A DNA stretch of 64,000 bases from Terriglobia bacterium (lineage in GTDB: Bacteria > Acidobacteriota > Terriglobia > Terriglobales > Acidobacteriaceae), in NCBI GenBank assembly GCA_963742495.1, contig CAVULZ010000006.1, forward strand, positions 93,428-157,427, written 5' to 3'. Made by a program: the position numbers and the translations under genes. This document shows positions 34,818 through 57,069 of the stretch, piece after piece. The notes below the pieces were generated by a model. That model was not told the DNA's origin, did no database searches, and worked only from the letters and a program-made list of their open reading frames with translations. Each line of letters opens with the position of its first letter. Positions within the stretch are counted from its first letter, which is position 1.

Positions 34818-35280
34818 GATGGCAGCCTCCAAGTAAGGCCGAAACTCTCTTCGGCTCGAAACTTCAGGTGGCCTTTATCGGTACATCGATTGGGATTCTT
34901 CAATGAATGGATCGGGGGGTGAAACTATCGCTGGCCTCTCTAGGTGTCGCACAAGACAAGCCGAGTTTTCGTCGCGTGTAGAGGGACGGAGAACACGCAG
35001 GTGCCCGGCACGGGCCTCGCGGGTTCCACGGCAGGTTCGCCGAAATATCGGCTACCTCCCCCAGGGAGATGGTGCCGCTCGCCGAAACGTGTCTTAAAAG
35101 CCGGAAATGGCCCTATGGCGGCGAATCTTCCCACGGAACGTGCTCAGGGTCATCCCAATGCTGGGCCGCCATTGTCGTGCGCTCGTGCCAGCGAACCCTA
35201 GCACCTGCCTAGCACCACAGGAAAGTCCCAGATCAAGTCCCGTAGGGATGTGCACCAAATCCATATGTTTATTGAAGATT

Positions 35281-35326
35281 TGGTGAGCGCGGAAGGAATC
35301 GAACCTTCAACCTACTGATTAAGAGT
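35281..35326 (-). repeat. distal att repeat: displaced 3' half of a tRNA-Lys gene (anticodon loop to CCA)
   Basis: tggtgagcgcggaaggaatcgaaccttcaacctactgattaagagt is identical to 56734-56779 at 44/46 positions. The two differences (positions 13 and 27) are base-pairing partners in the T-stem. Confidence 0.85.
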
Positions 35327-35479: not shown

Positions 35480-35659
35480 CTCGCAGGAGCCAACTCGTGC
35501 GGTCTGGACAACTGATGGGGGTCAGTCGGTCAAAAATCCGGCTCGTTCTGGCTAAACACCAGTTGAGAATGAAGTCTTGCGCACCGCAGCGGGTCACGAC
35601 CTGAGGATGGAGAAAATATTGTCAGTGCAAAATATGCGATCTTATCGTATATTTTGCAT

Positions 35660-36820
35660 ATGTGGATTCCGCGTGCGGTTGAACCCCGCCTGCAGCGCTC
35701 CGCGAAGACGCGGCCCGTGGTCGTGTTGACTGGAGCCAGACAGACCGGCAAAACCTCCACCTTTCTGCGTCTGTTCCCGAAGCATGTGTTTGTCTCCCTC
35801 GATCTTCCCGTCGAAGCCGAGCAAGCCGAAAAGGAACCGGGCACGTTCCTCCAACGTCATCCTCCGCCCGTCCTTATTGATGAGGTCCAATATGCGCCCG
35901 GCTTGTTCCGGCACCTCAAGGCGGCAGTGGATGCCCACCGTACTCGCAACGGACAATTTCTGCTTACTGGTTCGCAGAAGTTCAGCCTCATGAAGAATGT
36001 TTCCGAATCACTCGCAGGCAGGGCAGACATCGTGGAACTGGAAACCCTTTCCTTTGCCGAGATTCAGTCGGCATTGCCCAAAACCCGGATCGAGACAGCC
36101 GTCGTGCGCGGTGGTTTTCCAGAACTGTACGCCAACCCAGACATTGATTCTGTAGCTTTTTATAATTCCTATCTCGCTACGTATCTCGAACGCGATGTGC
36201 GCTCGTTGACTAATGTTGGCAGCCTGCGGGACTTCGAGAGATTTCTACGCGCCTGCGCACTCCGTTCTGCCAACCTGTTGAACAAAGCCGATCTGGCCCG
36301 CGATGTCGGGATTGCACCTTCAACGGCAAATCATTGGCTGTCCATGCTCGAAGCTTCCGGGCAGATCGTATTGCTTGAGCCGTGGTTTTCGAATCGAACC
36401 AAGTCCATCGTCAAGAGCCCAAAACTCTATCTCTCTGACACGGGTCTGCTTTGCGCCCTGCTGAATATTCGGACCGAGGAAGCTCTACGGCAATCACCCG
36501 CCGTAGGCGCAGTTTGGGAGACGTTTGTTTTCGCCCAGCTTCGGGACCGGGAACGCCGCGCAGGGCGCACGGGCAGCCTTTTCTTCTGGCGTGACCGAAC
36601 CCGCGAAGTGGACTTCGTGGTGGATACTGGTGGACGCTTGGAACTGTTTGAAGCGAAGTGGACGGAACTGCCAGATGTCGGCGATACAGTGAATCTCGAC
36701 TTCGTGCGCAACGTGGTGGGGAAATCACGGGTAGCCGCCGGTGCAGTCGTGTGCCGCGCATCGAGCGGCTTTCCGCTTTCGAATGGATTTCGGGCTGTAC
36801 CCCTGACTGAACTCAGATGA
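35660..36820 (+). CDS. AAA-family ATPase with C-terminal DUF4143 domain
   Basis: The P-loop is LTGARQTGKTST and Walker B-like is VLIDEVQYAP. The architecture is typical AAA_14/DUF4143 (...LLNKADLARDVGIAPSTANHWLSMLEASGQIVLLEPW...VDFVV). The ATG at 35660 is preferred over the TTG at 35654. Confidence 0.85.
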   Translation: MWIPRAVEPRLQRSAKTRPVVVLTGARQTGKTSTFLRLFPKHVFVSLDLPVEAEQAEKEPGTFLQRHPPPVLIDEVQYAPGLFRHLKAAVDAHRTRNGQFLLTGSQKFSLMKNVSESLAGRADIVELETLSFAEIQSALPKTRIETAVVRGGFPELYANPDIDSVAFYNSYLATYLERDVRSLTNVGSLRDFERFLRACALRSANLLNKADLARDVGIAPSTANHWLSMLEASGQIVLLEPWFSNRTKSIVKSPKLYLSDTGLLCALLNIRTEEALRQSPAVGAVWETFVFAQLRDRERRAGRTGSLFFWRDRTREVDFVVDTGGRLELFEAKWTELPDVGDTVNLDFVRNVVGKSRVAAGAVVCRASSGFPLSNGFRAVPLTELR

Positions 36821-36847: not shown

Positions 36848-36989
36848 CTGACATTCCCCGGATAAAGGAATGATTAGCTGAGGCCATTCAGGTCTGTGTC
36901 AAGACCGGGCGAAGCCCGCCGCGTAACGCGGCCGCAGAGTCTTGACACGGACCGGGCTTCGGCTACGCTCTCGGTATCCCGGGGATGGC
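36848..36989 (+). repeat. long-hairpin element, copy A (embedded -35/-10-like hexamers plus multi-stem hairpin)
   Basis: CTGACA-17 nt-TGATTA is followed by stem P1 gctgaggc/gcttcggc (36877-84 / 36956-63). Stem P2 is ggtctgtgtcaagac/gtcttgacacggacc (36891-905 / 36939-53). The small hairpins are cgggc-gaa-gcccg and ccgcg-taa-cgcgg. An outer pairing is cattccccggata / tatcccggggatg. It is colinear with copy B at 50016-50170. Confidence 0.6.
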
Positions 36990-37188
36990 GGTTGGGAATA
37001 GAGTTCAAAGGGACACTGATACGAAACAACTTACACGCGCACGGATGACACCTAAGCGACTGTAAGGTACTGCAAGGAACGCACCGAAGTCCCCAATTTA
37101 GTCCCCAGTCCACATTCAGTTCCTGGTTGGTATGAGCTCTCCATTTTCAGGTGGTTTATGTCGTAGTTTGAACGAGCGTTCCTTTTCA

Positions 37189-37611
37189 CTACTTCGTGAT
37201 TCTGTGTCCACCCGCGGCAGAATGAGCCTTCCGTTTTGTAACGCGACCCGATGTCTGACGCCTTCTGTCAACCCTGACGTGCGCAGTGGTGGGTTCAGAA
37301 GACCCGACAGCAGTAGCAAACGCAGCGGGATTCAGTGCGGTGAGCACAGCGGCTGGATTCCTGTCAATGACAGTGAGCAACGTGCGAGCCGGCGCTTCGG
37401 GGGTCCTCCGCCCGCCCTCCCAGTGCTTGATGGCATCCAGGCTGAACCCAAACGTGTCAGAGAATCTGGCTTGTGTCATGCCAAGTCGATTGCGGATCGC
37501 TTTTACGTCAACCTCCCGGGGCACATGCGCCCTGAATCCTTCTTGCTTCCCAGCAAGAAAAGCCTCAACGTCGTTAAGGCCATCCATCATCTGCTCGAAT
37601 TGCGTTTTCAT
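37189..37611 (-). CDS. higA: HigA-like antitoxin (XRE-type HTH)
   Basis: Trimmed to ATG 37611. It reads [22 protein letters not shown]...[54 protein letters not shown]. It lies directly downstream of the toxin gene (1-nt gap), which is the HigBA order. Confidence 0.75.
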
Positions 37612-37612
37612 G

Positions 37613-37963
37613 CTACCTCCCGTAAGTCTCGAAAACACTATCGGCACGTTTCTTCAGCGCGTTGCGTTCCGCCATCGACAGGTTTTCTTTCTCATTCTTT
37701 GGAAAAACCGTGATGAGAAAAACCGGAAATCTCTCGTTGCGCCAGATATACACAACCCGCGCCCCGCCACTTTTCCCCATTCCCTTGCGCGCCACCCGGA
37801 CCTTTCGAAATCCGCCAGTTCCGCGGATCACGTCTCCACATTCCGGGTCAGCCGCAACGAGTGCCACGATGTCCGCACGCTCCTCCTCGCTAAAGAGCTT
37901 GTTGGCAATGGCGAGGTAAGTGGGCGTCTCGACGACCGTCTGCACAATTCTCTTGTACTCCAT
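37613..37963 (-). CDS. higB: RelE/HigB-superfamily toxin (DUF1044-like)
   Basis: [58 protein letters not shown] is typical of this toxin family. It is 116 aa and lies upstream of the HTH antitoxin. Confidence 0.75.
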
Positions 37964-38306: not shown

Positions 38307-39701
38307 CTACAGGAGGTCGGCGATCGCAGCGATACCTCGCTCGATTGTGCTCTCGCTAAGATGGCCGAAGCCGAGCACGAGCTGCGGCGGCCGGGTGCTT
38401 CCAGTTGAGCGGTAGTTACTCATGCCGTAGAGGCCGATGGCCCTGGCCCGAGCCGCAGAGATGACCGCCCGCTCTTCGACTGTGTCCGGGAGGTTCGCCA
38501 CTGCGTGGAAACCCGCTGCGAGCCCACGTAGCTCGACGTGGGGAGCATGCCGCGCCAGGGCCTCCGTGAGCGCTCGGCGCCGACCTTCATACAACGCACG
38601 CATGCGGCGAAGGTGTCTATCATAGCGCCCCGACTCGATCAGCCGGGCCAGTGCGACTTGGTCGAGGCCGGGGGATCCACGATCGTCCAGGTGCTTATCG
38701 CGGGCAATCGCTTCGGCAAGCCTAGGGGGGCAGACGATCCAGCCGATCCTCAGAGCAGGTGCGAGCGTCTTACTGACCGAACTCAAGACAACCACACGGT
38801 CCGGGGCGAGGCCCTGAACTTGCCCGACCGGTTGGCGGTCGTATCGGAACTCGGCATCGTAGTCGTCCTCAATGATAGTCGCGCCGCGCTTGTTCGCCCA
38901 TCCGAGGAGAGCGTGCCGTCGCTCGGGGGCCAGAACACCACCGGTCGGCGACTGATGAGCGGGTGTGAGGACCACGGCGCGCGCATCCGTAGCACCGAGC
39001 GCTTCAACGTCCACACCGTGCTCATCGACCGGGACAGGGATAGCTTCCAACCCGGCCCGGGTGGCGATGGAGCGGTTGTCGGGGTCTCCGGGATCTTCGA
39101 CCGCGATCTGGCGCACGCCTTCTCGGACGAGGGTGCGGAGCACAAGATTGAGGCCCTGTGCAAATCCCGAGCAGATCACCATATTCTGAGAGTTCGCGAC
39201 CGCGCCACGAACCCGGCGCAGGTAGGCGACAAGGACCTCACGTAACGCGATGCTCCCACGTGGTTCGGAATAGCCAAAGGCTTCCGGTGGCGCTCCGCGG
39301 GCAACCTCCCCCAGCGCCCAGAGCCAGTCGCGCCGTGGAAAGCTCGTGAGGTCGGGCACTCCGGGACGGAAATCGACAACAAGCCGCGGCGTGGCAGCGA
39401 TTCGGGGGGACAATTGTGGCACCGCCTGTGCGCTCGCCGCCACGCGAGTGGCGGAGCCCACCCGCGTGATCAAGTACCCTTCGGCCTGGAGTTGCTCGTA
39501 GCACTCCAACGCCAGGCCACGGGAAACACCAAGCTCGCGGGCCAAAGCTCTTGACGAAGGAAGGCGCTCGCCAGCGCTCAAGCGGCCCGAGCGGATCGCC
39601 TCCCGCAACTCCCGCTGGAGCTGCGAACCAAGCGTCTCGCGCAACCCACGGTCAAGGCGGAGGAGGATTTCTGGCCCCAAACCGGCCCACTGAATCGTCA
39701 T
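38307..39701 (-). CDS. MocR-family regulator (GntR wHTH fused to aminotransferase-like PLP domain), copy 1
   Basis: Trimmed to ATG 39701 (MTIQWAGL...). The wHTH reads LPSSRALARELGVSRGLALECYEQLQAEGYLITRVGSATRV. The AAT-like domain has SVSKTLAPALRIGW. The 200-aa N-terminal extension in the ORF track is antisense to the EamA gene. Confidence 0.9.
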   Translation of the reverse strand: MTIQWAGLGPEILLRLDRGLRETLGSQLQRELREAIRSGRLSAGERLPSSRALARELGVSRGLALECYEQLQAEGYLITRVGSATRVAASAQAVPQLSPRIAATPRLVVDFRPGVPDLTSFPRRDWLWALGEVARGAPPEAFGYSEPRGSIALREVLVAYLRRVRGAVANSQNMVICSGFAQGLNLVLRTLVREGVRQIAVEDPGDPDNRSIATRAGLEAIPVPVDEHGVDVEALGATDARAVVLTPAHQSPTGGVLAPERRHALLGWANKRGATIIEDDYDAEFRYDRQPVGQVQGLAPDRVVVLSSVSKTLAPALRIGWIVCPPRLAEAIARDKHLDDRGSPGLDQVALARLIESGRYDRHLRRMRALYEGRRRALTEALARHAPHVELRGLAAGFHAVANLPDTVEERAVISAARARAIGLYGMSNYRSTGSTRPPQLVLGFGHLSESTIERGIAAIADLL

Positions 39702-39771
39702 GGAATTGGATCTTACAATAGGCCAGCTAGTTCGGTACAGTTCGAAATCGGGAGACGCGGAGAACATACCA

Positions 39772-41319
39772 ATGAGCGACGAAATACGAATGGGGCCACA
39801 CGCAAACGCGGACCAAGGTCCTAGCGAATCGCCCATGAGCGCGCGAGCATGGGCCACTTTCGTGGCAGTGGCCGTCCTCTGGGGGATTCCGTACCTATTG
39901 ATCAAGATCGCAGTGGGTGACGGCGTCCCGCCGGCATTCGTTGCGTGGGTGCGGATTCTCCTCGGCGCAGCGATACTGCTGGGGTTGGCTTGGCGGGCGC
40001 GTGTTTTGGGCGGTCTCCGGGGCCGCGTAAAGTGGCTCGCTGCCTTCGCGGTTGCAGAGATCGCCGTACCATTTCCGCTGATCGCGGCCGGTGAGCAGCA
40101 TGTGACTTCATCACTGGCAGCGATTCTCATCGCGACAGCGCCGCTGTTCGTGGCGCTCCTTGCCCTTCGCTTCGACCCAAGCGAACGTCCCTCGCTCCGG
40201 CAGTTGGCCGGGCTCATCCTGGGCCTTGCAGGCGTTAGTGGGCTCGTGGGACTAGACATTGCGGGGCGGGCCGATGAGTTTCTCGGTGCGGCCCCGGTTC
40301 TCACTGCGGCCTTCTGCTACGCCGTCGGCCCGATGATCTTCAAGCGCCGACTGGCCGATCTCGACCGGCGGGCCTCAATGGGCGCGAGCCTCGCCCTCGC
40401 GGCGCTTTTCTTGGCCCCAGCGGCTGCGCTCCACCCGCCCACCGCGGTGCCCTCGGCGAGGGCCATTGTCGCGCTTCTCGGTCTCGCTCTGTTCTGCACA
40501 GCCGCGGCCCTTGTGCTCTGGGGCGCGCTCATCGGGCAAGTGGGAGCGGGCCGGGCGCTTGTTGTGACCTATGTGAATCCACTGGTCGCGGTCGCGCTCG
40601 GCATGGCGATCCTTGGTGAGCGGCCCGGAGTCGGAGCAATCGCCGGCCTGCTACTCATCCTCGGAGGCTCGTGGCTTTCCACCAACGGACACTTGCCGGG
40701 ACGACTCGATCGCTTGGCGATTCTCGCTTCACCTCGTTCGACATTTAAAGCAGAGCAGAGTTCTGGCTGGTCGAGATCGTCCCGAAGCCCAACTCTGAAC
40801 CCTAAACCAGGAGGAATGACAATGCGATTCATGACGACGAACAGGGCCAATAAAAACTCGGAAATGGACACTAGGCAGGATCATATGCTCGTTGCCGCAA
40901 TGGACATGAGGAAGACGACCATGCTGCTGTGGATCGTTCAAGGGCTGCTGGCGGTCCTCTTTCTGTTTGCCGGCGGAATGAAGCTAATCCTGCCACTCGA
41001 CGCGCTGACAAAGCAGATGCCGCTCCCCCTGCCAGGTCTGTTCTTGCGGTTCATCGGCTTGGCAGAGGTGCTCGGCGGGATCGGCCTGATCCTCCCCTCG
41101 CTCCTTCGCATCCGAATGGTTCTGACACCGCTGGCCGCCTGCGGGTTGGTGATCATCATGATCGGTGCAGCGGTGTATACGCTGGCTGGCGGTGGTGGCG
41201 CGGCGGCCCTGATTCCACTGGTGGTGGGGCTCCTCGCGTCATTTGTGGCCTACGGTCGCTGGCGACTGACGCCGCATCGAGGGTACGCGCATGCGTCGCC
41301 TCTCCATTCTGCTGGCTAA
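39772..41319 (+). CDS. EamA/DMT transporter continuing in frame into a DoxX-like membrane domain (fusion or lost stop codon)
   Basis: The 10-TM EamA-like part runs to about 40720 (...LLILGGSWLSTNG). An ~80-aa low-complexity linker follows. The DoxX-like part (MLLWIVQGLLAVLFLFAGGMKL...FIGLAEVLGGIGLILP) is preceded by an internal AGGAGG plus ATG at 40816/40822. The start codon is uncertain (39772, 39790 or 39835). Confidence 0.7.
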   Translation: MSDEIRMGPHANADQGPSESPMSARAWATFVAVAVLWGIPYLLIKIAVGDGVPPAFVAWVRILLGAAILLGLAWRARVLGGLRGRVKWLAAFAVAEIAVPFPLIAAGEQHVTSSLAAILIATAPLFVALLALRFDPSERPSLRQLAGLILGLAGVSGLVGLDIAGRADEFLGAAPVLTAAFCYAVGPMIFKRRLADLDRRASMGASLALAALFLAPAAALHPPTAVPSARAIVALLGLALFCTAAALVLWGALIGQVGAGRALVVTYVNPLVAVALGMAILGERPGVGAIAGLLLILGGSWLSTNGHLPGRLDRLAILASPRSTFKAEQSSGWSRSSRSPTLNPKPGGMTMRFMTTNRANKNSEMDTRQDHMLVAAMDMRKTTMLLWIVQGLLAVLFLFAGGMKLILPLDALTKQMPLPLPGLFLRFIGLAEVLGGIGLILPSLLRIRMVLTPLAACGLVIIMIGAAVYTLAGGGGAAALIPLVVGLLASFVAYGRWRLTPHRGYAHASPLHSAG

Positions 41320-45502: not shown

Positions 45503-47029
45503 ATGGCGAAACTGGCAGCGGCATTCGAACTTGCTCTTCCATTTAACAACTCAGGACTGCCGGCCTATCGCTGGCTCTATTCCTCCTTACGCGATGAGAT
45601 TCTGCATGGTCGCTTGCGGCCAGGGGCACGGCTCCCATCTACTCGCGCGTTGGCAATCCAGTACGGGCTGGCGCGAGGAACGATTGTCAATGCTTTCGAA
45701 CAGCTCAAGTCCGAGGGCTATATTGAAGGCAGCGTGGGGTCGGGCACCCAAGTCAATAAGGTCTTGCCGGAGAGACTGCTCCAGATCTCGCCCGGACCTC
45801 CAGCGTCTGAGCCTGCCACGAATCCCGCATTGCACCGAAAGCGGCAGCTCGCGATTTCAGATTACGGTCGACGGGCAAAGCTATTTGGGGGTTATGAGAA
45901 TCGTCCGACCCGCGCCTTCCGTGCCAACCTGCCAGCTTTAGATCTGTTTCCCGTGGCGCGGTGGACAAAGATCACGCTCCACTGCTTACGTCGACTTTCG
46001 AGACGCCAACTGATGGGATGCGATCCTCTGGGATACATTCCGCTTCGGCAAGCGGTGGCAGAGTACTTGATCCGGTCGCGAGGGGTGAGATGTATGCCAG
46101 AGCAAGTGGCAATAGTCTCTGGCGTGCAGGAAGCACTCGACCTGACCGCTCGACTGTTCTTGAATCCCGGAGATCGGGTGTGCGTGGAGGACCCCGGATA
46201 CCCTGGCGCAGTCATGGCGTTTCAGGCATTCCGCGCAAGGATCGTTGCCGCCGGGGTGGATGACGAGGGGATAGAGGTCCGTCGGCTTCCGTCTCAGGGA
46301 GTTCGGTTGATTTACACAACACCTGGGCATCAGTTCCCCTTGGGAACCACGATGAGCTTGGCGCGGCGACTGCAACTGCTGGAGTGGGCACGGAAGTCGG
46401 GAGTGGTAATTTTTGAAGACGATTATGACAGCGAGTACCGTTACTCGGGTCGGCCGATTCCAGCACTGCAGGGGCTCGATGACGGCGGGTTGGTTCTCTA
46501 TGCGGGCAGTTTCAGCAAGGTGCTGTTTCCCGCGCTCCGCCTTGGATATCTGGTGATTCCAGTCGACTTATTGCATCACTTCGAAGCGATCCTTTCGTTG
46601 ACCTCCCGTCACGCGACGCTGTTGGAGCAGCTCGTGCTCACTGACTTCATCATCGAGGGCCACTTCGGGCGACACCTGCGGCGCATGCGCGAGATATATG
46701 CTGAGCGTCTTTCGGTACTTTTGGAAGAGGCACGCCTGAGACTCGTCGGTTTACTGGAAATCTCAGAGGTCGAAGCTGGCTTGCAGACTATCGGATGGCT
46801 CGGTGGTGGAATCGACACCGAATCTGCGACCGCTGCTGCAGCAAAACGCAGTGTGGATGTGACTCCAGTGGATCGCTACAGCCAAGGCAGAGTCGCGACA
46901 CAGGGATTGCAGCTGGGATTTGCTGCGGTGGACGTGAAGGAGATCCGTCGCGGAGTTCGGGAGCTCGCGATCGCGCTGGACAGCGAACAGAAGGCCTTGC
47001 ATAGCGGCTCGCAGAAGTCTCGGCGGTGA
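45503..47029 (+). CDS. MocR-family regulator, copy 2
   Basis: The wHTH reads LPSTRALAIQYGLARGTIVNAFEQLKSEGYIEGSVGSGTQV. The AAT-like domain has SFSKVLFPALRLGY. It is divergent from the cupin-DoxX-EamA-DUF4440 operon. Confidence 0.9.
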   Translation: MAKLAAAFELALPFNNSGLPAYRWLYSSLRDEILHGRLRPGARLPSTRALAIQYGLARGTIVNAFEQLKSEGYIEGSVGSGTQVNKVLPERLLQISPGPPASEPATNPALHRKRQLAISDYGRRAKLFGGYENRPTRAFRANLPALDLFPVARWTKITLHCLRRLSRRQLMGCDPLGYIPLRQAVAEYLIRSRGVRCMPEQVAIVSGVQEALDLTARLFLNPGDRVCVEDPGYPGAVMAFQAFRARIVAAGVDDEGIEVRRLPSQGVRLIYTTPGHQFPLGTTMSLARRLQLLEWARKSGVVIFEDDYDSEYRYSGRPIPALQGLDDGGLVLYAGSFSKVLFPALRLGYLVIPVDLLHHFEAILSLTSRHATLLEQLVLTDFIIEGHFGRHLRRMREIYAERLSVLLEEARLRLVGLLEISEVEAGLQTIGWLGGGIDTESATAAAAKRSVDVTPVDRYSQGRVATQGLQLGFAAVDVKEIRRGVRELAIALDSEQKALHSGSQKSRR

Positions 47030-48237: not shown

Positions 48238-49725
48238 TTGAATATGACAAAGGTTGCAGTTGAGGTCAGGTTGCCCTGGCTCCGACTCGATGAACGCGAT
48301 CCAAGACCTCTCTCCCGCCAGCTCTACGATGGGATTCGTCAAGCCGTTCTGGGTGGGAGGCTGCGGCCCGGAAATCGATTGCCGTCGACGAGGGCCTTTG
48401 CCACCGAATTCGGAATTTCAAGAAACACCATCACAAATGCATATGAGCAATTGCTCTCCGAAGGGTATCTCGACGCACGAGTTGGCGCAGGTACGCGCGT
48501 AGCCCAATCGCTTCCGGGCTTGCTGGCCAAGAGTGCCCAAGCCTACTTGGAACCACGACGCTCAGAGCGGCACCTTCTGTCGAAACGTGGAAAAACGATA
48601 GCCGGTTGGCGCGTGAGGCCTTTGCGTGCGCCACATCAACCGAGCCCTTTTGAAGCTGGACTTCCCGACTCACAGATCTTTCCGTATGCAATTTGGCGGA
48701 GATTGATCAGTCGCCACTGGCGGCGGCCTCACTACGAACTCCTAGGGTATGGCGATCCCGCTGGATACCGACCCCTGCGCGAGGCCATCGCATCGTACCT
48801 TCGTTCAGCACGTGCTGTGAGGTGCGAAGCCGATCAGGTTTTCATTGTCAACGGTTCGCAGCAGGCGTTGAACCTGAGCGCGCAACTCTTGATCGACCCC
48901 GGCGATCCAGTATTGATTGAGAATCCAGGATATTCGGGGGCCGGCTTTGCTTTGGAGGCAGCCGGAGCGCGACTCGTCCCTTTGCCAGTTGACGACAATG
49001 GCGTCAGACTGCCCGGCCAACGCCAAATCGAAAGAAACGCGCGTCTCATTTTTGTCACTCCGTCTCATCAATTTCCTCTCGGAGTCACCCTAAGCCTGGC
49101 CCGCCGGCTGGAATTGGTGGAGTGGGCGCGTCGTCGTCACGCCTGGATTCTCGAAGATGACTACGACAGCGAGTACCGCTATCAGGGGAAGCCTCTGCCG
49201 TCCTTGCAGGGTCTCGACCAATCCGGGCGTGTCATTTATATGGGTAGCTTCAGCAAGACTCTTTTTCCATCGCTTCGACTCGGTTTCATGGTCCTGCCGA
49301 ACGACCTTGTCGAGCCGTTCCGGCGTGCTCGCTCGGTGTTGGATGTTCATTCACCCTTGTTCGAACAGGCAGTATTGGCGGACTTCGTGGCCGAGGGGCA
49401 TTTCGCTCGGCATGTCCGGCGCATGCGCTCCCTCTACGGGAATCGGCAGGCAGCCCTGCTCGAAGCGGCCAAAAACGAACTCGCCGGCTTTTTGCAGATA
49501 GAATCCGCCGACGGCGGGATGCACGTGGTCGGATGGCTCCCGAAGGGTGCAAGCGATGTGCGCGCTTATCAGAGTGCGGCGGCACACGGGATCTTCACTT
49601 GGCCCCTTTCCTACTGCTCGCTGCGAAAACTTTCCCGAGGAGGGCTTATGCTCGGGTACGCCGGGCTGAACGAGCGTCAAATACTTGACGGGGTCCGGAG
49701 GCTGGCCGCGGCACTCCACGTTTAA
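48238..49725 (+). CDS. MocR-family regulator, copy 3
   Basis: The wHTH reads LPSTRAFATEFGISRNTITNAYEQLLSEGYLDARVGAGTRV. The AAT-like domain has SFSKTLFPSLRLGF. Confidence 0.9.
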   Translation: MNMTKVAVEVRLPWLRLDERDPRPLSRQLYDGIRQAVLGGRLRPGNRLPSTRAFATEFGISRNTITNAYEQLLSEGYLDARVGAGTRVAQSLPGLLAKSAQAYLEPRRSERHLLSKRGKTIAGWRVRPLRAPHQPSPFEAGLPDSQIFPYAIWRRLISRHWRRPHYELLGYGDPAGYRPLREAIASYLRSARAVRCEADQVFIVNGSQQALNLSAQLLIDPGDPVLIENPGYSGAGFALEAAGARLVPLPVDDNGVRLPGQRQIERNARLIFVTPSHQFPLGVTLSLARRLELVEWARRRHAWILEDDYDSEYRYQGKPLPSLQGLDQSGRVIYMGSFSKTLFPSLRLGFMVLPNDLVEPFRRARSVLDVHSPLFEQAVLADFVAEGHFARHVRRMRSLYGNRQAALLEAAKNELAGFLQIESADGGMHVVGWLPKGASDVRAYQSAAAHGIFTWPLSYCSLRKLSRGGLMLGYAGLNERQILDGVRRLAAALHV

Positions 49726-50015
49726 GGTCCGCCCTATTTTCACAATCAATAAACATCGAAAATAGGCGATATTGACATGAGCTGGCGTCGGGGCAGTACA
49801 ACCACCGCCGGGCCGACTGCGAGACCGGGGTCAAGCTCCTGCAGTAGTATCTTCCCGGGTGCGCGTGCTCTGCGGGACGTTGAGATCGAGGACCTCGAGT
49901 GCCAGATCTCCTCCAACAGGACAGCGGTTCTTGCACTGTCTCGATGTGTAAGAGGACAATTGCCATTAACAGCGATTCATCTTGGGGCGGAGCCCGTTTC
50001 GTAGAACTAGAAAAA

Positions 50016-50170
50016 TTGACATTCCGCGGATAGCTGAATAATAAGCCGAGGCGCAAAGGCCAGTGTCAAGGCTCTTCGACCGCGAACGCGGCGCGCGAAG
50101 CGCGGCCTTGACACTGGCCGGGCCTCGGCTATGCTCTGGCTATCCGGGGCATGTCATTCGGGGAATTCAG
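50016..50170 (+). repeat. long-hairpin element, copy B (embedded TTGACA-17-TAATAA plus multi-stem hairpin)
   Basis: TTGACA (50016-21), a 17-nt spacer and TAATAA (50039-44) come first. P1 is gccgaggc/gcctcggc (50045-52 / 50122-29). P2 is ggccagtgtcaaggc/gccttgacactggcc (50058-72 / 50105-19). The inner hairpins are ccgc-gaac-gcgg and cgcgc-gaa-gcgcg. The outer pairing is tgacattccgcggatagc / gctatccggggcatgtca. The element ends 3 nt before the relaxase stop codon. Confidence 0.6.
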
Positions 50171-50172
50171 CA

Positions 50173-52935
50173 TCACAGGCCTAGACCGAGACCCTGACTG
50201 ATCTGATTCGTGTGCGTAGTTTGTGGTTCTATGTTGTGCGCTCCTGGCTCTTGCTGAATAGCAGGAGAATGGGACACGTCGCGGCTGAGTTCTTGCGCGA
50301 GCGTCTGTGCGTTGTTCGTATAAATCTGGGCGTCATAGCGTCCACGTGAGACCGAGACATAGGCCATGCGGCTGTTGAGCAGATCCTTGGCGCCCAACTC
50401 GGTGTCCACGTGAATGAGGACATGGTCGGCAGTCTGTCCCTGGCTGGAGTGGCTGGTCATGGCATAACCGTGGTCGAGATGCGGATGCTTGTGGAGGTCG
50501 AGTTCGACCGTGCGGCCACCGTCCAGCTGCAAGCGCAGCCGCCGGTCTCCGTCGATGCTCTCGATGGTCCCCAACTCGCGATTCGCAACTTTCAGTTCGT
50601 TGGCCGGCGCGGTGAATTGGATGCGGTCGCCCACTGAAAAACATCGCATCTCCTCGCGGAAGACCGAGACTCCCTGCTGCCTGCGCGGATCGTAAGTGCG
50701 CTCTGTGCCATCCTGCAGCTCGACTGTCAGCCGGTTCTTCGGAGCGTCAATACTCTTCACCTGTGCGTACGCGCGTTTCCCGATGCCGGTCTCCTTCGAT
50801 GCGCGCGAGTAGCGCAGCACATTGCCCACCTCATACCGTTCGGCCCATGTGCGGTCCGCGCGGGTGAGGTCTTGGCGCGGCACAAGCGTCCTGATGCGGT
50901 GCTCTTCGCTGCTGACGAGGCCACTCCGCTGCAATTCCGCATGGATGCGCTCATTGATCTCCATGCGAGAGCGATTATCGGGAGAAATCGCCAGCGTCTT
51001 CTCCGGTGATTTTGCGTAGTCCTTCGCAATCGCGGCGATGCGCTCGTCGCCGCCTTGAATCTCATGGACGCGGCCCTGCCGGCCAAGATTCTGTATTGCT
51101 TCGCGTACATCACCACGCGCAAGCTGCTCGACCACCTGTTTTAGTTCCGGGTCTTTCTGGCGCACGATCTCTTCGAGCCTCACCGTTTTCATACCGGCGT
51201 CCTGGAGCTGCGCGAAGGGCCGCCCGGCCTCAACGGCCTCATGTTGCCGCCGGTCGCCGACGAGCAACACACGGTCATTCGGATGGAGCCGGTTCACAAA
51301 CCCATGCACTTGCCGGGTCGATGCCAGCGAGGATTCGTCAAGCACATAGAGCCGCTTCTCCCCGCTATCCGGCTGCTGTCCACGTACCAGATGCTTCTGT
51401 AGCGTGGATGTCTCCAAGCCTGCTTCGCCGAGCTTCTGCGCCGCACGGGACGTGGGCGCGAAGCCTTCCACCCTGTAGCCCTCGGCCTCCGCGCCTTCGC
51501 GGATAACCGCCAGAGTTGTTGTCTTGCCCGCGCCTGCGATGCCATCTAAGCCGACCATCTTCTCACGCGAGAGAAATATTTCGTCTACTGCTTGGCGCTG
51601 TGACACATTCAACTCCGGGTGACGGTCTTCCGTGGCGATGCGAACTTGCGGCGAGACCAGCATGGGATCACTGTAGTCGCGCCGATTGCCTTGCTGCATC
51701 CGGCCAACGACCTCGCGCTCCATGCGCACCATCACGGCGGTTGTGAACTGTCTGCCAGCGCCAACGTGCGAGACTTCGCGGAACTCCCCGGCCTCGATCC
51801 GGCGCTCGAACTCCTCCCGGACCTGGGCATAGGTGGTTTCTCCAATGCCGCGCACCAGCGCTGCTTCAAGGATCGCGCGGCGGTCCTGCACCGCCGATCT
51901 CTCGAAGACATGATCGCGCGCCCATGTCACAGCCTGCTGCGCCTGCATCTCTGGCTCCGGCATCTGGTATTGCCCATGTTGGCGCGCCCGTACGACGACC
52001 CGGTCTGCCTGATGCCCGTACTGTGCGGCCAACTCGCGGTGCCGCTGTAAGACTTCTCCAGGCGACAGCAGTTCCTTGCGATCGCGAGTGTGGTGGGCCG
52101 CGATCTGTGCCGCCGCGGCTCCGTCGATTCCTTGTTCCCGGAGATGGTCTTTGATCTGTCCACGCCTCGGACTGGAAGCCTCCAGATATTCCTTCGTGTA
52201 GCCTTTTACTTCCGGCTGTCCATGCCTGCCGCGCTCCAGTTCGTAGCCCAGCTTTTCCAGACGCAGAGCCAACTCGGATCGGTAGACCGCTGTGGCGTAG
52301 CGCTGTGACACGAACATCTCGTGCGGCTGCAAAGCTCGCATCTGTTTTCCATTTTCGAGACCGTTCTCGGGCTCGGTCATGTTGAAGATCACGGCATGCG
52401 TATGAAGCTGGGGCGCAGCGTAGCCATCGACGGGCCGCGCGGTGTCGTGCTCGAAAGTGGCGGCGATGAATTTTCCGGTCGTCTCCGGGGCATGCACATT
52501 GCCGATCCGCGCCTGCGTGTACCGCTCAAGTTCCTGAAGCGCTGCGCGAACGCTCTCGCGATGGGCTTCCCGCACCCGATCATCGCCGCCCACAAGCGCG
52601 GTGATCGATACTGACTTCGGCGCGGAAAACGTTGCGTCCCATCCGGCTCGGTGCTCGGCGCTGGTCACTTCCTTGCCGAACTTCCCTTCATAGGTTCTAG
52701 AAACCTGATGCCGGACAAGCTGCTCTTCGCTGTGGGGATGCTGGCCTTCACTCAGCCGAGCAAAGTGCTCAGACTCAACTGGGCCAGTGAGCTTCCACTG
52801 CTCGGCGAGTTTGCCTTGCCATTCGCTATGGCCTTGCTGATCGCGGCTCCAGTAGTTCTGTTCCTGCGAGGCAAACTCCCGCACATGGTAGGTCTGCGCC
52901 TGGCTGGCTGACAGCGGTTTCGAGATCGTGAGCAT
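50173..52935 (-). CDS. conjugative relaxase, TrwC/TraI (MOBF-like) relaxase domain plus P-loop helicase domain
   Basis: The N-terminus MLTISKPLSASQAQTYH... includes FSAPKSVS. A histidine-triad region reads FEHDTARPVDGYAAPQLHTHAVIFN. The central P-loop is GIAGAGKTT, with a helicase-like C-terminus (YAMTSHSSQGQTADHVLI). Confidence 0.9.
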   Translation of the reverse strand: MLTISKPLSASQAQTYHVREFASQEQNYWSRDQQGHSEWQGKLAEQWKLTGPVESEHFARLSEGQHPHSEEQLVRHQVSRTYEGKFGKEVTSAEHRAGWDATFSAPKSVSITALVGGDDRVREAHRESVRAALQELERYTQARIGNVHAPETTGKFIAATFEHDTARPVDGYAAPQLHTHAVIFNMTEPENGLENGKQMRALQPHEMFVSQRYATAVYRSELALRLEKLGYELERGRHGQPEVKGYTKEYLEASSPRRGQIKDHLREQGIDGAAAAQIAAHHTRDRKELLSPGEVLQRHRELAAQYGHQADRVVVRARQHGQYQMPEPEMQAQQAVTWARDHVFERSAVQDRRAILEAALVRGIGETTYAQVREEFERRIEAGEFREVSHVGAGRQFTTAVMVRMEREVVGRMQQGNRRDYSDPMLVSPQVRIATEDRHPELNVSQRQAVDEIFLSREKMVGLDGIAGAGKTTTLAVIREGAEAEGYRVEGFAPTSRAAQKLGEAGLETSTLQKHLVRGQQPDSGEKRLYVLDESSLASTRQVHGFVNRLHPNDRVLLVGDRRQHEAVEAGRPFAQLQDAGMKTVRLEEIVRQKDPELKQVVEQLARGDVREAIQNLGRQGRVHEIQGGDERIAAIAKDYAKSPEKTLAISPDNRSRMEINERIHAELQRSGLVSSEEHRIRTLVPRQDLTRADRTWAERYEVGNVLRYSRASKETGIGKRAYAQVKSIDAPKNRLTVELQDGTERTYDPRRQQGVSVFREEMRCFSVGDRIQFTAPANELKVANRELGTIESIDGDRRLRLQLDGGRTVELDLHKHPHLDHGYAMTSHSSQGQTADHVLIHVDTELGAKDLLNSRMAYVSVSRGRYDAQIYTNNAQTLAQELSRDVSHSPAIQQEPGAHNIEPQTTHTNQISQGLGLGL

Positions 52936-52982: not shown

Positions 52983-53387
52983 TCATTCGATTCCCTTCGT
53001 TTTCTCCCAGGCGAACGCCTCTTTGGGTTTGGTCCCGCGCGCACCGAGGATCGAACCAAAGAGTGCGAGCATCGGCTGGGTAGGCTCCTTCAGCGGATCG
53101 GCGGGAGCATTTGCGGGCACTGATGGCGCTGGTTTCGGCCCGATCTCGGGCATCTGCCGCTGCGAAAATCTCGGCAGTCCGAATCGGATTCTGACCATCT
53201 TTATCCTCCATCTCTGGATCAAACTTGGCCGAGGTCGGCCCCATTCGATCTTTTCCACATCCCGCCATTTACGTGGGGATCGGTTCTGCAACACACTCCG
53301 CACAGCGAGTAACAAAAGGAACATCGCGGCTACCCAAAGCAATGGCGCCAAGAGCGAAGGGCTTCCGGGAAAAGACATGGCACTCAT
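52983..53387 (-). CDS. hypothetical small membrane protein in the mobilization operon
   Basis: One TM helix is present (LLAPLLWVAAMFLLLLAV). The start overlaps the stop of the MobC-like gene by 4 nt, and the ORF ends 48 nt before the relaxase start. Confidence 0.4.
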   Translation of the reverse strand: MSAMSFPGSPSLLAPLLWVAAMFLLLLAVRSVLQNRSPRKWRDVEKIEWGRPRPSLIQRWRIKMVRIRFGLPRFSQRQMPEIGPKPAPSVPANAPADPLKEPTQPMLALFGSILGARGTKPKEAFAWEKTKGIE

Positions 53388-53812
53388 GGCGTACGAGCTC
53401 TTTCCTTGCCCTCGCGGGCGAAGAAGTCGTCAAGGAGTTTGCGCGCCTGCTGAAGCTTTCGTGCGTCTGCCTGGTCGCGAATCTTGAGGACGGAATCAGG
53501 CGACAATTGTCTGCCTTCCGATGCCGCTTGAGAAGCTGCATGGAAGAGATTCAAGAGCGTGTAACGCACCGCCCAGATTTCGGCCAACATCAGTTCGCTA
53601 GGATCGGCGGGCCGCTTGCGCGCAGAGCCGAGCGCGGTCTCGCGCAGCCACTCGGAGAGAGCCTGCCCCGCGCCTTCAGCGGCCGCTTCGATCTCGGCCA
53701 GTTCGTCTGGAGTCAGCCGGGTGGCGGCAGTCTTGGTGCGGAAGCCGGGCTTCGCCTCTTCTCCGAACGGCAAACTGGACTGAGGATTAGCCTGAACGCG
53801 GGAATTACTCAT
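53384..53812 (-). CDS. MobC-like/ribbon-helix-helix relaxosome accessory protein
   Basis: TRLTPDELAEIEAAAEGAGQALSEWLRETALG is the typical MobC/RHH motif. The gene lies upstream of the relaxase. Confidence 0.6.
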   Translation of the reverse strand: MSNSRVQANPQSSLPFGEEAKPGFRTKTAATRLTPDELAEIEAAAEGAGQALSEWLRETALGSARKRPADPSELMLAEIWAVRYTLLNLFHAASQAASEGRQLSPDSVLKIRDQADARKLQQARKLLDDFFAREGKERARTP

Positions 53813-54104
53813 TGGACAAACCGCCTTGTTGCACTACTGCCCTTAATTCCAATGCGACTAAACTTCGCAATTGTTAGTTCACATCAAGTTCTTGCGCTTC
53901 AACGCGTTTACGTGATCGACGATGGGCAGCGCTTTGTCGCAAACAAAAATCATTGTTCGACATCGCAGTCACTCAGCAGGCGACGAATTTTGTTGATGCA
54001 GCGAAAGTTAACCGGCGTAAACATCGAAGCGCTGTCTGGCGCGCCGCAGTTCCCAATTTGGGGGTGACGTGTCCACCCTTCTTCCGGTGCGAAGCACCGC
54101 GTTC

Positions 54105-55386: not shown

Positions 55387-55635
55387 ATGCCCCAGCCAAT
55401 CGTGATGAAAAAACCAGCCATGCCTCAGCTCGTCAACACGCGCAACGCCGCTGAGATTCTCGGACGCTCAGCAGCAACTTTGAAACGATGGCGCGCCGAG
55501 GGAGTCGGGCCGAATTGGATAGAACTGCAAGGTCGGGTTAGCTATGATGTGAATGTTCTTTTGGAATACATCCAGAAGAACACACGAGTTGCTTCCGTGC
55601 GGGCTGCAATGGAGGAAGCTCGTGAAGCTGTTTAA
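55387..55635 (+). CDS. xis: excisionase/AlpA-type helix-turn-helix DNA-binding protein
   Basis: LVNTRNAAEILGRSAATLKRWRAEGVGPNWIELQGRVSYDVNVLLEYI. AGGAG lies upstream. It lies immediately before, and overlaps, the integrase gene. Confidence 0.7.
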   Translation: MPQPIVMKKPAMPQLVNTRNAAEILGRSAATLKRWRAEGVGPNWIELQGRVSYDVNVLLEYIQKNTRVASVRAAMEEAREAV

Positions 55636-56665
55636 GAAAGCGAAGTCCAAGTTTTACTGGTATGACTTCACGGTACGCGGACAACGCTACCGTGGGTCAA
55701 CGAACGAAACAAAAGCGGCCAGGGCGGCAAAGGTTGCTGGTCTGAAACTCGCAAGAGTGGTCGAGAATACAGATCTGCTTCCGAAAAGAGCTCCTGTGCT
55801 GCTGGAGTTTTCCCGGCGCTTCCTGGAATGGCTGGATAAGGTCAGACTGGAAGACAAAACGAAAACCTATTACCGCGATGGCTGGCGACTCATAAAGACA
55901 ACGACCATCGTTGGCATGCGACTGGATCAGATCACGAGGGATGTTATCGAGACTCTGAGGTTTTCCGGCGCATCCTCGAATGCCAATTGCGCGCTGAGAA
56001 CGTTAAGAAGGATGCTGCACAAGGCGGAGGAGTGGGCTCTGATTCGTCATGCTCCAAAACTCAAACTGATGAAGGAATACGGACGTTCACTCAGGCTTGA
56101 CGATGAAGCGGAAAAGAAATTGTTGGCCGGCGCTGCTGCCTGCAACTGGCGGAAACGCAGCCTTCAGCTTTTCCGAGACATCATCATCTTGATGCGCGAT
56201 ACCGGTATGCGGAACGAAAGAGAGCTTTACCGGATGCGCATCGAGAACCTAGATTGGGAAGGCCGCGTGATCTTCGTGCCGGACAGCAAGACCGAAGAAG
56301 GAAGGAGACGCGTGCCGATGAGCAATCGCGTCTTTGACATTCTTAGACAGCGGTGTGAAGGAAGGCACGCAGGGTGGGTTTTCCCATCGAAGCGCGCCAA
56401 GTCTGCTCACCTCACCACAATGGCCAAGAGATTTCAGGAAGCCAGAGTCAAGGCTGGGCTACCGGAAGATCTTGTCCTCTATTGTGGGCGGCATGACTAT
56501 GGCACTCGGATTCTAAAGAGAACCGGAAACCTGGCTGCCGTCATGAGAACCATGGGACACAGGGATGTGAAGACTGCGATGCAGTATCAGCATCCCGAGC
56601 TAGAGATCGTGCGCGCTGCGCTCGATCATGACACAGCAGTAGAGAAACGGGTGTCGCCGGATTGA
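55622..56665 (+). CDS. int: tyrosine-type site-specific integrase
   Basis: The start was set at GTG 55622 (KLFKKAKSKFYWYDFTVRGQRYRGST is a typical N-terminus). Catalytic-region motifs include MRDTGMRNERELYRMR, HLTTMAKRF, CGRHDYGTRILK and MGHRDVKTAMQYQH. Confidence 0.9.
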   Translation: MKLFKKAKSKFYWYDFTVRGQRYRGSTNETKAARAAKVAGLKLARVVENTDLLPKRAPVLLEFSRRFLEWLDKVRLEDKTKTYYRDGWRLIKTTTIVGMRLDQITRDVIETLRFSGASSNANCALRTLRRMLHKAEEWALIRHAPKLKLMKEYGRSLRLDDEAEKKLLAGAAACNWRKRSLQLFRDIIILMRDTGMRNERELYRMRIENLDWEGRVIFVPDSKTEEGRRRVPMSNRVFDILRQRCEGRHAGWVFPSKRAKSAHLTTMAKRFQEARVKAGLPEDLVLYCGRHDYGTRILKRTGNLAAVMRTMGHRDVKTAMQYQHPELEIVRAALDHDTAVEKRVSPD

Positions 56666-56689: not shown

Positions 56690-56733
56690 CTGGAAAAATC
56701 GGTTTGCAAATCACCGGTAAGTGATTGAAAAGA

Positions 56734-57069
<336 letters not shown>

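Follow-up and report, generated by a model that had tools for sequence, protein, structure and literature searches.

Two co-oriented hairpins in a tRNA-Lys island

The DNA described here is a 64,000-nucleotide (nt) stretch of contig CAVULZ010000006.1 from a Terriglobia bacterium of the Acidobacteriaceae (hereafter the window), and the subject of this report is a long hairpin that is present twice in an integrated element within it. The element is a 21.5-kb tRNA-Lys island flanked by a 56-nt direct repeat, of which the left copy (35271-35326, plus strand) forms the island boundary and the right copy (56724-56779, plus strand) is the 3' part of the tRNA-Lys(CTT) gene that contains it (56734-56809, minus strand). 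Hairpin copy A (36849-36990, plus strand) lies between an AAA_14/DUF4143 ATPase gene (35654-36820, plus strand), which stops about 28 nt before it, and a higBA-like toxin-antitoxin pair (37189-37963, minus strand), recognised by eye from the translations as a RelE/HigB-like protein of 116 amino acids (aa) and a helix-turn-helix antitoxin. Hairpin copy B (50017-50156, plus strand) lies between a GntR-aminotransferase (MocR-type) cargo regulator gene (48238-49725, plus strand) and a TrwC/MOBF relaxase-helicase gene (50173-52935, minus strand; Pfam TrwC E = 3e-82, AAA_30 E = 4e-56), the stop codon of which (50173-50175) is 16 nt from the outer helix of the hairpin. The neighbours of both copies are convergent, and from neither hairpin does transcription in any direction reach a sense gene. 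An open reading frame (ORF) at 37132-37713 (plus strand), considered as a gene served by the hairpin, is spurious and overlaps higA. The pairing of the ATPase gene with the hairpin recurs in loci L018 and L087.

Copy B was delimited from its DNA fold and pair list, from a covariance model (R1) and from covariation in 29 relatives. Its DNA fold (-56.3 kcal/mol, z = -8.6) comprises an outer helix (50017-50035 with 50138-50156), a bubble (50036-50043 opposite 50131-50137), a middle helix (50044-50054 with 50120-50130), an AAA bulge on the 5' side (50055-50057), an inner helix (50058-50072 with 50105-50119) and a branched apex (50073-50104). The apex carries two mini-hairpins on the plus strand, CCGC-GAAC-GCGG (50080-50091) and CGCGC-GAA-GCGCG (50092-50104), the second of which contains GCGAAGC. 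Copy A has the same orientation and a weaker outer helix (-39.5 kcal/mol, z = -3.9 for the whole fold), and its apex is formed on the plus strand by CGGGC-GAA-GCCCG (36906-36918) and CCGCG-TAA-CGCGG (36919-36931). With R1, copy B scored 158.6 bits on the plus strand against 88.2 on the minus strand, and copy A 132.8 against 62.6. These two copies, both on the plus strand, are the only ones in the window.

To assess covariation, 29 diverse members of the family were aligned. As RNAalifold applied to a plain MAFFT alignment recovered the inner helices only, the fold of copy B was projected onto the alignment and the pairs were counted. Across the 29 members 81.5% of the cells could pair, compared with 31-42% when the partners were slid by one to three columns, and compensatory changes were found at 26 pairs. 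The covariation score was 0.241, compared to 0.114 in shuffled alignments, and none of 500 shuffles reached the observed value. The hairpin is a real, covarying and strand-asymmetric family. It had no match in Rfam 15, where only tRNA exceeded the gathering threshold and the best E-value of a focused scan was 0.14, for unrelated families. Similarly, a blastn search of PLSDB with the hairpin gave no match among its 72,556 plasmids, which should comprise members of IncF and IncI.

A promoter in the 3' arm and the strand that folds

A promoter scan called a conserved pair of boxes in the 3' arm of both window copies. In copy B, the -35 box TTGACA (50108-50113, plus strand) lies in the 3' arm of the inner helix, where it pairs with 50064-50069, and the -10-like hexamer TATGCT (50130-50135, plus strand) follows after 16 nt; T50130 (position -12) forms the last pair of the middle helix, and the remaining bases of the hexamer, 50131-50135, are unpaired. 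The corresponding boxes of copy A are TTGACA (36942-36947) and TACGCT (36964-36969), also on the plus strand and 16 nt apart. The predicted transcript of copy B would start near 50141-50143 with 5'-AUCCGGGG. The -35 box is next to the apex and the -10 box at the junction of stem and bubble, so that the promoter points out through the base of the hairpin, the geometry required if RNA polymerase is to leave over the 5' flank of the strand itself.

The conservation of this pair was examined in two sets of relatives. An inner-stem pattern scan identified at least 119 loci, in which every Acidobacteriaceae subfamily carried, on one strand, TTGACAC and a YAYRCT hexamer exactly 16 nt past TTGACA; the sequence of the spacer varied between subfamilies and its length was fixed. 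Because the pattern had required TTGACAC, the hairpin set was re-derived via the relaxase protein. Relatives of the relaxase were found at 343 loci, and the 79 new loci among the best 80 were scanned together with 10-kb flanks. In these 79, with two or three exceptions, R1 detected a hairpin beyond the relaxase stop codon and on the strand opposite to the gene. In the 82 distinct relaxase-anchored hairpins, TTGACA was exact in 79 and the spacer was 16 nt long in 75, while the -10 hexamer was TATGCT in 40, TACGCT in 29 and TACACT in 6 (75 together).

Within the 29-member alignment, the A at position -11, the C and the T at position -7 of the -10 hexamer were invariant. The -35 box was paired in all 29 DNA-parameter folds and the 16-nt spacer was nearly all paired (mean of 1.3 unpaired bases), whereas position -12 was paired in 69% of the folds and positions -11 to -7 were unpaired in 55-76%. 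As modelled, the promoter of the 3' arm is thus presented in a fork-junction, pre-melted form, with a duplex -35 box and spacer and a -10 box that opens at the bubble. The fork-junction form is one that the sigma-70 holoenzyme binds well.

The initial annotation of this locus had proposed that the hairpin presents sigma-70 boxes on the single-stranded DNA (ssDNA) of a mobilizable element. The idea is retained below as the best-supported explanation, with a different pair of boxes. The pair singled out at that time lies on the same strand in the 5' arm of copy B, and consists of TTGACA (50016-50021, plus strand) in the outer helix, on the predicted template side, and TAATAA (50039-50044, plus strand) on the A/T-rich 5' strand of the bubble, opposite TATGCT. 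Direct reading found these boxes and their 17-nt spacer as described, together with CTGACA (36848-36853), a 17-nt spacer and TGATTA (36871-36876) in copy A; the pairing of TGACAT (50017-50022) with ATGTCA (50151-50156) and the position of TAATAA in the unpaired bubble were also confirmed. As a promoter signal, however, this pair fared poorly. TAATAA lacks the T at position 6 of a -10 box, and the promoter scan made no call. Among the 82 relaxase-anchored hairpins, the outer box was CTGACA in 43, TTGACA in only 2, and was not found in 31, and the hexamer 17 nt further on was TAATAA in 25 and TGATAA in 13, with a final T in none. In addition, the 5'-arm boxes point into the apex, whereas TTGACA-16-TAYRCT points out of the base at promoter spacing. 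The earlier remark that nothing better than a poor -10 box is available across the bubble missed TATGCT, which is on the plus strand itself.

As a background measure, the window holds 21 TTGACA hexamers on both strands, three of which are followed at 16-18 nt by a -10-like hexamer with at least four of six matches, about the number expected by chance on a rough estimate. Only the one at 50108 passes the test for A at position 2 and T at position 6 of the -10 hexamer. A minus-strand promoter (TTGACA, 20-21 nt including a bulge, and a TATTAT-like hexamer) was considered less likely, given its irregular spacing and a hexamer that two subfamilies do not conserve.

The strand that folds is the promoter-bearing strand, and four independent markers agree on this. 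R1 scores were about 60-70 bits higher on the promoter-bearing strand, and the DNA folding energy was lower on it in 25 of 29 members; folds with RNA parameters were also more stable on this strand (23 of 29). G·T pairs were more frequent than A·C pairs on the promoter strand (91 against 51 in all, and 32 against 10 when only the well-aligned helices are counted), and the 78 apical triloops comprised GAA (63), GCA (9), GTA (5) and GGA (1), with no triloop of the complementary TNC type; these counts come from mutually related sequences and are hence not independent events. GNA loops closed by C-G form unusually stable mini-hairpins in DNA and are a hallmark of DNA rather than RNA. Their occurrence on the promoter strand therefore favours DNA over RNA as the folded molecule.

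Position in the elements, candidate oriT and cargo

The hairpin was found directly after the relaxase stop codon (about 3-16 nt) in about 130 loci, belonging to two relaxase clades. At least six loci (L187, L155, L133, L160, L157 and L146) contain extra copies 1.3-9 kb further on, giving two or three per element. Every extra copy scoring at least 41 bits was co-oriented with the first and none was located upstream of the relaxase; a weak hit in L130 (31.9 bits) was oppositely oriented. In the window, copies A and B are likewise co-oriented, though they follow genes on opposite strands. Shared orientation would be expected of a function tied to one strand of the whole element, and would not be needed for one tied to single genes, such as termination. 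In the relatives, the gene beyond the hairpin is variable cargo in either orientation (40 vs 28), including metallophosphoesterases, TIG-domain proteins, transposases and a radical SAM enzyme, so that the backbone ends and the cargo begins at the hairpin.

Two kinds of cargo recur beside it. A metallophosphoesterase of about 270-300 aa is encoded directly past the hairpin, co-directional with the relaxase, in L139 (12987-13793), L122 (12933-13844) and about 12 more loci, an orientation that would suit reading from the predicted single-stranded promoter. Transposase genes of the IS110 family lie 1-25 nt from the hairpin in four loci (L138, 12929-14020; L135; L165; L152), and in a genome of the Vicinamibacterales about 200 nt separate another such gene (L080, 1437-2912) from a hairpin of similar kind. 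IS110 elements may use the hairpin as a site of insertion.

The second relaxase clade (type II) shares about 27% identity with the first (type I, as in the window) and is represented by 53 loci, in which about 10 nt separate the hairpin from the stop codon (9 nt in L057). Telmatobacter bradus DSM 23630 (L056) is one carrier of a type II element. Five type II elements, L200 (1387-9622 and 17404-17481), L202, L203, L222 and L233, carry arrays of 10-26 tRNA genes opposite to the relaxase strand, with a lone tRNA-Glu(ttc) gene 2-6 kb past the hairpin that is probably the attachment site.

A separate candidate for the origin of transfer (oriT) was identified upstream of the type I relaxase operon. 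This is a near-invariant 55-nt block (54045-54100, plus strand) with two inverted repeats, including GGTGC-GAA-GCACC, and conservation of the surrounding intergenic region, upstream of the operon of accessory gene and relaxase, extends to 73 loci. A further instance of the block was found upstream of the MobF operon of the Granulicella tundricola plasmid pACIX904 (L199, 9001-9042), and the block is probably the oriT. A probable ribbon-helix-helix relaxosome accessory protein (MobC/TrwA-like) is encoded at 53384-53812 (minus strand); it was recognised by eye from the translation, and this ORF is kept in 19 loci. The order in the island would be accessory gene, inverted repeats and presumed nic site. 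If the layout is that of R388, the plus strand, which carries the hairpin promoters, would be the transferred strand. The oriT block had no match in the type II loci, the upstream regions of which align over about 70 nt only, and no oriT candidate was found there.

No hairpin of the family was detected in an 18-kb stretch around the MobF operon of pACIX904, and it was also absent from the Bryobacteraceae relatives of the second relaxase clade. These absences separate the hairpin from the relaxase's own recognition site.

A tyrosine integrase gene (55553-56665, plus strand; Pfam Phage_integrase E = 1e-20) is located at the right end of the island, and no type IV secretion genes were seen among the window ORFs scanned, so that the element looks like a mobilizable island. 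Its relatives were found by pattern and protein searches almost entirely in Acidobacteriaceae/Terriglobales genomes from soil and peat. Many relaxase loci (L120, L121, L125, L127, L128 and others) are at contig ends and several genomes contain two or three copies; these elements are multi-copy and break assemblies. Three MocR-type regulator genes of the GntR-aminotransferase family are present in the one island (38307-40304, minus strand; 45503-47029, plus strand; and 48238-49725, plus strand). Outside the island, the window contains a 300-nt direct repeat (18834-19133 and 19737-20036) with 68% identity between its copies, which are 903 nt apart.

Proposed function and alternative explanations

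Each hairpin is proposed to act, on the transferred strand, as an ssDNA promoter or single-strand initiation site at which the host RNA polymerase would synthesise a primer; the probability of this reading is put at roughly one half. When the island travels or replicates as ssDNA, the plus strand would fold into the hairpin of about 140 nt and so rebuild an already melted sigma-70-type promoter, with TTGACA and the 16-nt spacer in duplex and the -10 hexamer TAYRCT at the junction of stem and bubble, where A(-11) and T(-7) would be single-stranded on the non-template (3') arm. The holoenzyme of the host could then bind without having to open DNA, start near 50141-50143, copy the 5' arm and leave the base of the hairpin towards lower coordinates. 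The resulting RNA would prime synthesis of the complementary strand, and might also serve as an early transcript where a cargo gene is suitably oriented. In duplex DNA the bubble is gone and the promoter should be poor, since the -10 hexamer keeps A(-11) and T(-7) and has G or C at -9 and -8. The convergent neighbours of the window copies, with no sense gene to serve, fit priming better than gene expression.

Were the nic near 54100, about 4 kb would enter before copy A, which could make the segment of ATPase gene, attP and integrase duplex early; integrase transcription and attP recombination both need this segment in duplex form. On the transferred strand copy B would come immediately before the relaxase operon. 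In rolling-circle plasmids the single-strand origin is usually upstream of the double-strand origin, and the position of copy B matches this arrangement. Of the properties of a single-strand origin, strand-specific features and co-orientation were observed, and the displaced strand is inferred only.

Several points weigh against this proposal. The absence of the hairpin from pACIX904 and from the Bryobacteraceae relatives suggests that it is dispensable for some relatives, and the transferred strand is assigned solely by analogy with R388. In type II loci the hairpin is on the coding strand of the relaxase, and is thus flipped relative to type I; the flip is a true one, because the asymmetries are shared between the two types (ACATTCCCC in the 5' arm and an A-rich bulge on the 5' side). 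The strand transferred by F and R388 is the one that serves as template for the relaxase gene, and in ICEBs1 it is believed to be the coding strand. Either type II elements have the opposite transfer polarity, as in ICEBs1, or the function of the hairpin is independent of which strand is transferred. A priming site would not need to lie so tightly against the relaxase stop codon. The conservation of the -35 box in the set of at least 119 loci is partly circular, as TTGACAC was part of the search pattern, and the relaxase-anchored sets, which avoid the circularity, consist of close relatives. Finally, metatranscriptome contigs cover the hairpin (49996-50215) and give no strand direction. As contigs of related elements also diverge at the hairpin edge, transcript ends are not readable from them.

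The closest functional parallels are the ssDNA promoters described for IncF and IncI plasmids of enterobacteria, in which the Frpo/ssi hairpins rebuild -35 and -10 boxes and the transcripts can prime synthesis (PMC12672017; bioRxiv 10.64898/2026.01.09.698686); these plasmid promoters silence themselves once duplex (bioRxiv 10.64898/2026.01.09.698686). The hairpin described here shares with the Frpo/ssi hairpins of IncF and IncI1 a long, imperfect, one-strand fold with a rebuilt -35/-10 pair on an element moved by conjugation, and the same outward transcription by RNA polymerase, potential priming and silencing in duplex DNA are proposed for it. It differs from them in having no sequence similarity (no PLSDB match), in its Acidobacteriaceae host and its carrier, an integrated mobilizable island, and in its apex, branched into two GNA mini-hairpins, and its -10 box, placed exactly at the fork junction. 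Its location also differs, as it adjoins the relaxase gene: rather than being in a leading region, upstream of genes templated by the transferred strand, both window copies are between convergent genes.

A second parallel is ICEBs1, an integrative element with a functionally tested single-strand origin, sso1, which starts 6 bp past the relaxase gene nicK, works in one orientation and is backed by a second region (PMC4595007). Like sso1, the hairpin is a non-coding structure with strand-specific features next to a relaxase gene, and the redundant second region of ICEBs1 has a parallel in the second hairpin copy of the island. Unlike it, the hairpin has no sequence relationship to single-strand origins and no plasmid match; sso1 resembles the origins of pTA1060 and pBAA1, with three stem-loops. 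At ssoA-type origins RNA polymerase makes a short primer. On direct reading, no TAGCG was present on either strand of copies A and B, and thus no ssoA motif TAGCGT/A (CS-6); the lack of a plasmid match also gave no sign of homology to ssoT, ssoU or ssoW. In function the hairpin would be a counterpart of Frpo/ssi promoters and single-strand origins, and by sequence it is a member of neither. What sets it apart is the branched GNA apex, a -10 box placed exactly at the fork junction and, in two clades, the fixed position at the relaxase stop.

The first alternative is that the hairpin is a terminator or insulator at the border of backbone and cargo, and perhaps also a rightward promoter in double-stranded DNA, which would be antisense to the relaxase in type I and directed to the cargo in type II. 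This appears unlikely, although a hairpin between convergent genes, as around both window copies, is what intrinsic bidirectional terminators look like, the switch from conserved backbone to variable cargo occurs at the hairpin, and RNA contigs span the 3' end of the relaxase gene plus the hairpin. A double-stranded promoter would fit the ABC-ATPase gene of the type II locus L057, which is on the same strand and starts about 160 nt beyond the predicted transcription start; such a promoter has no need for a covarying hairpin. A terminator on the minus strand, formed by the hairpin and a following uuauuauu, had been offered in the initial annotation as another reading. In that form it lacks support, as the run lies inside the bubble and not after the stem. 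The actual tail past the stem on the relaxase-sense strand, GATTTCTAG or similar, is semi-conserved, which is in favour of a terminator, but has only 3-4 T in 8 nt, and the type II hairpins are without a T-run. A terminator scan made no call at copy A or copy B. Unlike intrinsic terminators, the hairpin is about 140 nt long and branched, with invariant promoter hexamers and a T tract that is weak or lacking, and termination leaves unexplained the fixed spacing of the -35 and -10 boxes, the unpaired -10 box, the one-strand GNA triloops and the co-orientation of copies.

It is improbable that the hairpin is itself the oriT, or another site that the neighbouring TrwC-type relaxase binds or cuts, with the bubble strand as the cleavage or recognition sequence. 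Its location some 3-16 nt from the relaxase stop in about 130 loci of two clades would suit such a site, as would its strand asymmetry and a conserved single-stranded motif beside a stem, which HUH enzymes prefer, and upstream of the type II relaxases only the 70 nt or so mentioned above are conserved, with no oriT candidate. The association with a TrwC-family relaxase and the one-strand hairpin structure are features in common with the MOBF oriT regions of R388 and F. In contrast to those, the hairpin is downstream of the relaxase and present in two or three co-oriented copies per element, and the 54045-54100 block, with its R388-like layout, fits better. That block is shared with pACIX904, which has the relaxase without the hairpin, and the Bryobacteraceae relaxase relatives also do without it. 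The same hairpin core recurs in other phyla with no relaxase found nearby, and the conserved letters are exactly those of a -35 and a -10 box at promoter spacing.

An action of the structure as RNA, in the form of a stabiliser in the 3' untranslated region, a processing site or a small RNA, is comparably hard to sustain. In four metatranscriptomes from peat, permafrost and wetland, contig depth over the hairpin was higher than over the relaxase gene in two (X21 and X24) and similar in the other two, and the greater stability of RNA-parameter folds on the promoter strand (23 of 29) would also suit an RNA; the depth may only reflect copy number or DNA carry-over. No Rfam family was matched, the strand that folds is complementary to the relaxase mRNA in type I and has the sense of that mRNA in type II, no conserved promoter is found upstream of the hairpin, where the left flank is variable cargo, and GNA triloops are typical of DNA rather than RNA hairpins. 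Least probable is a small mobile palindromic element, or mainly an IS110-type landing site: several sequence subfamilies, the orientation flipped between the two clades and the transposase genes 1-25 nt away in four loci (about 200 nt in L080) are set against a position fixed within a few bases of the relaxase stop in about 130 loci, and against only one or two loci per contig among the matches listed, including two complete chromosomes, which would speak for a low copy number per genome, where REP- or MITE-type palindromes have many dispersed copies.

Hairpins with the same core were also observed in Burkholderiales, Vicinamibacterales, Actinomycetes and others (L001, L012, L019, L041, L068, L073, L080, L114, L118 and L119). 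They have in common the GTGTCAAGGC stem and the branched apex. Their gene contexts are heterogeneous, with no relaxase nearby in those examined, and they were therefore kept out of the main claim. Seventeen hairpins from other phyla have GNA loops that single out one strand, and a hexamer with A at position 2 and T at position 6 follows TTGACA by 15-17 nt on that strand in 11 of them, compared with 3 on the opposite strand. This might tentatively indicate an undescribed, multi-phylum class of pre-melted promoters active in ssDNA only, which would recruit the host RNA polymerase as diverse mobile elements enter cells single-stranded, a suggestion we regard as rather doubtful at present. Such a class, should it exist, would be defined by a -35 stem, GCCTTGACAC, in duplex form, an apex that branches into GNA mini-hairpins and exposure of the -10 box at the fork junction.

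The covariance model is available for finding further hairpins of this family, and the hairpin can serve as a marker for the border between backbone and cargo in islands. If the ssDNA promoter reading is correct, the hairpin would be a very clean natural fork-junction promoter, the form of which would explain how it is switched off after second-strand synthesis, and a conserved family in soil Acidobacteriaceae would show that this strategy is widespread among integrated mobilizable elements.

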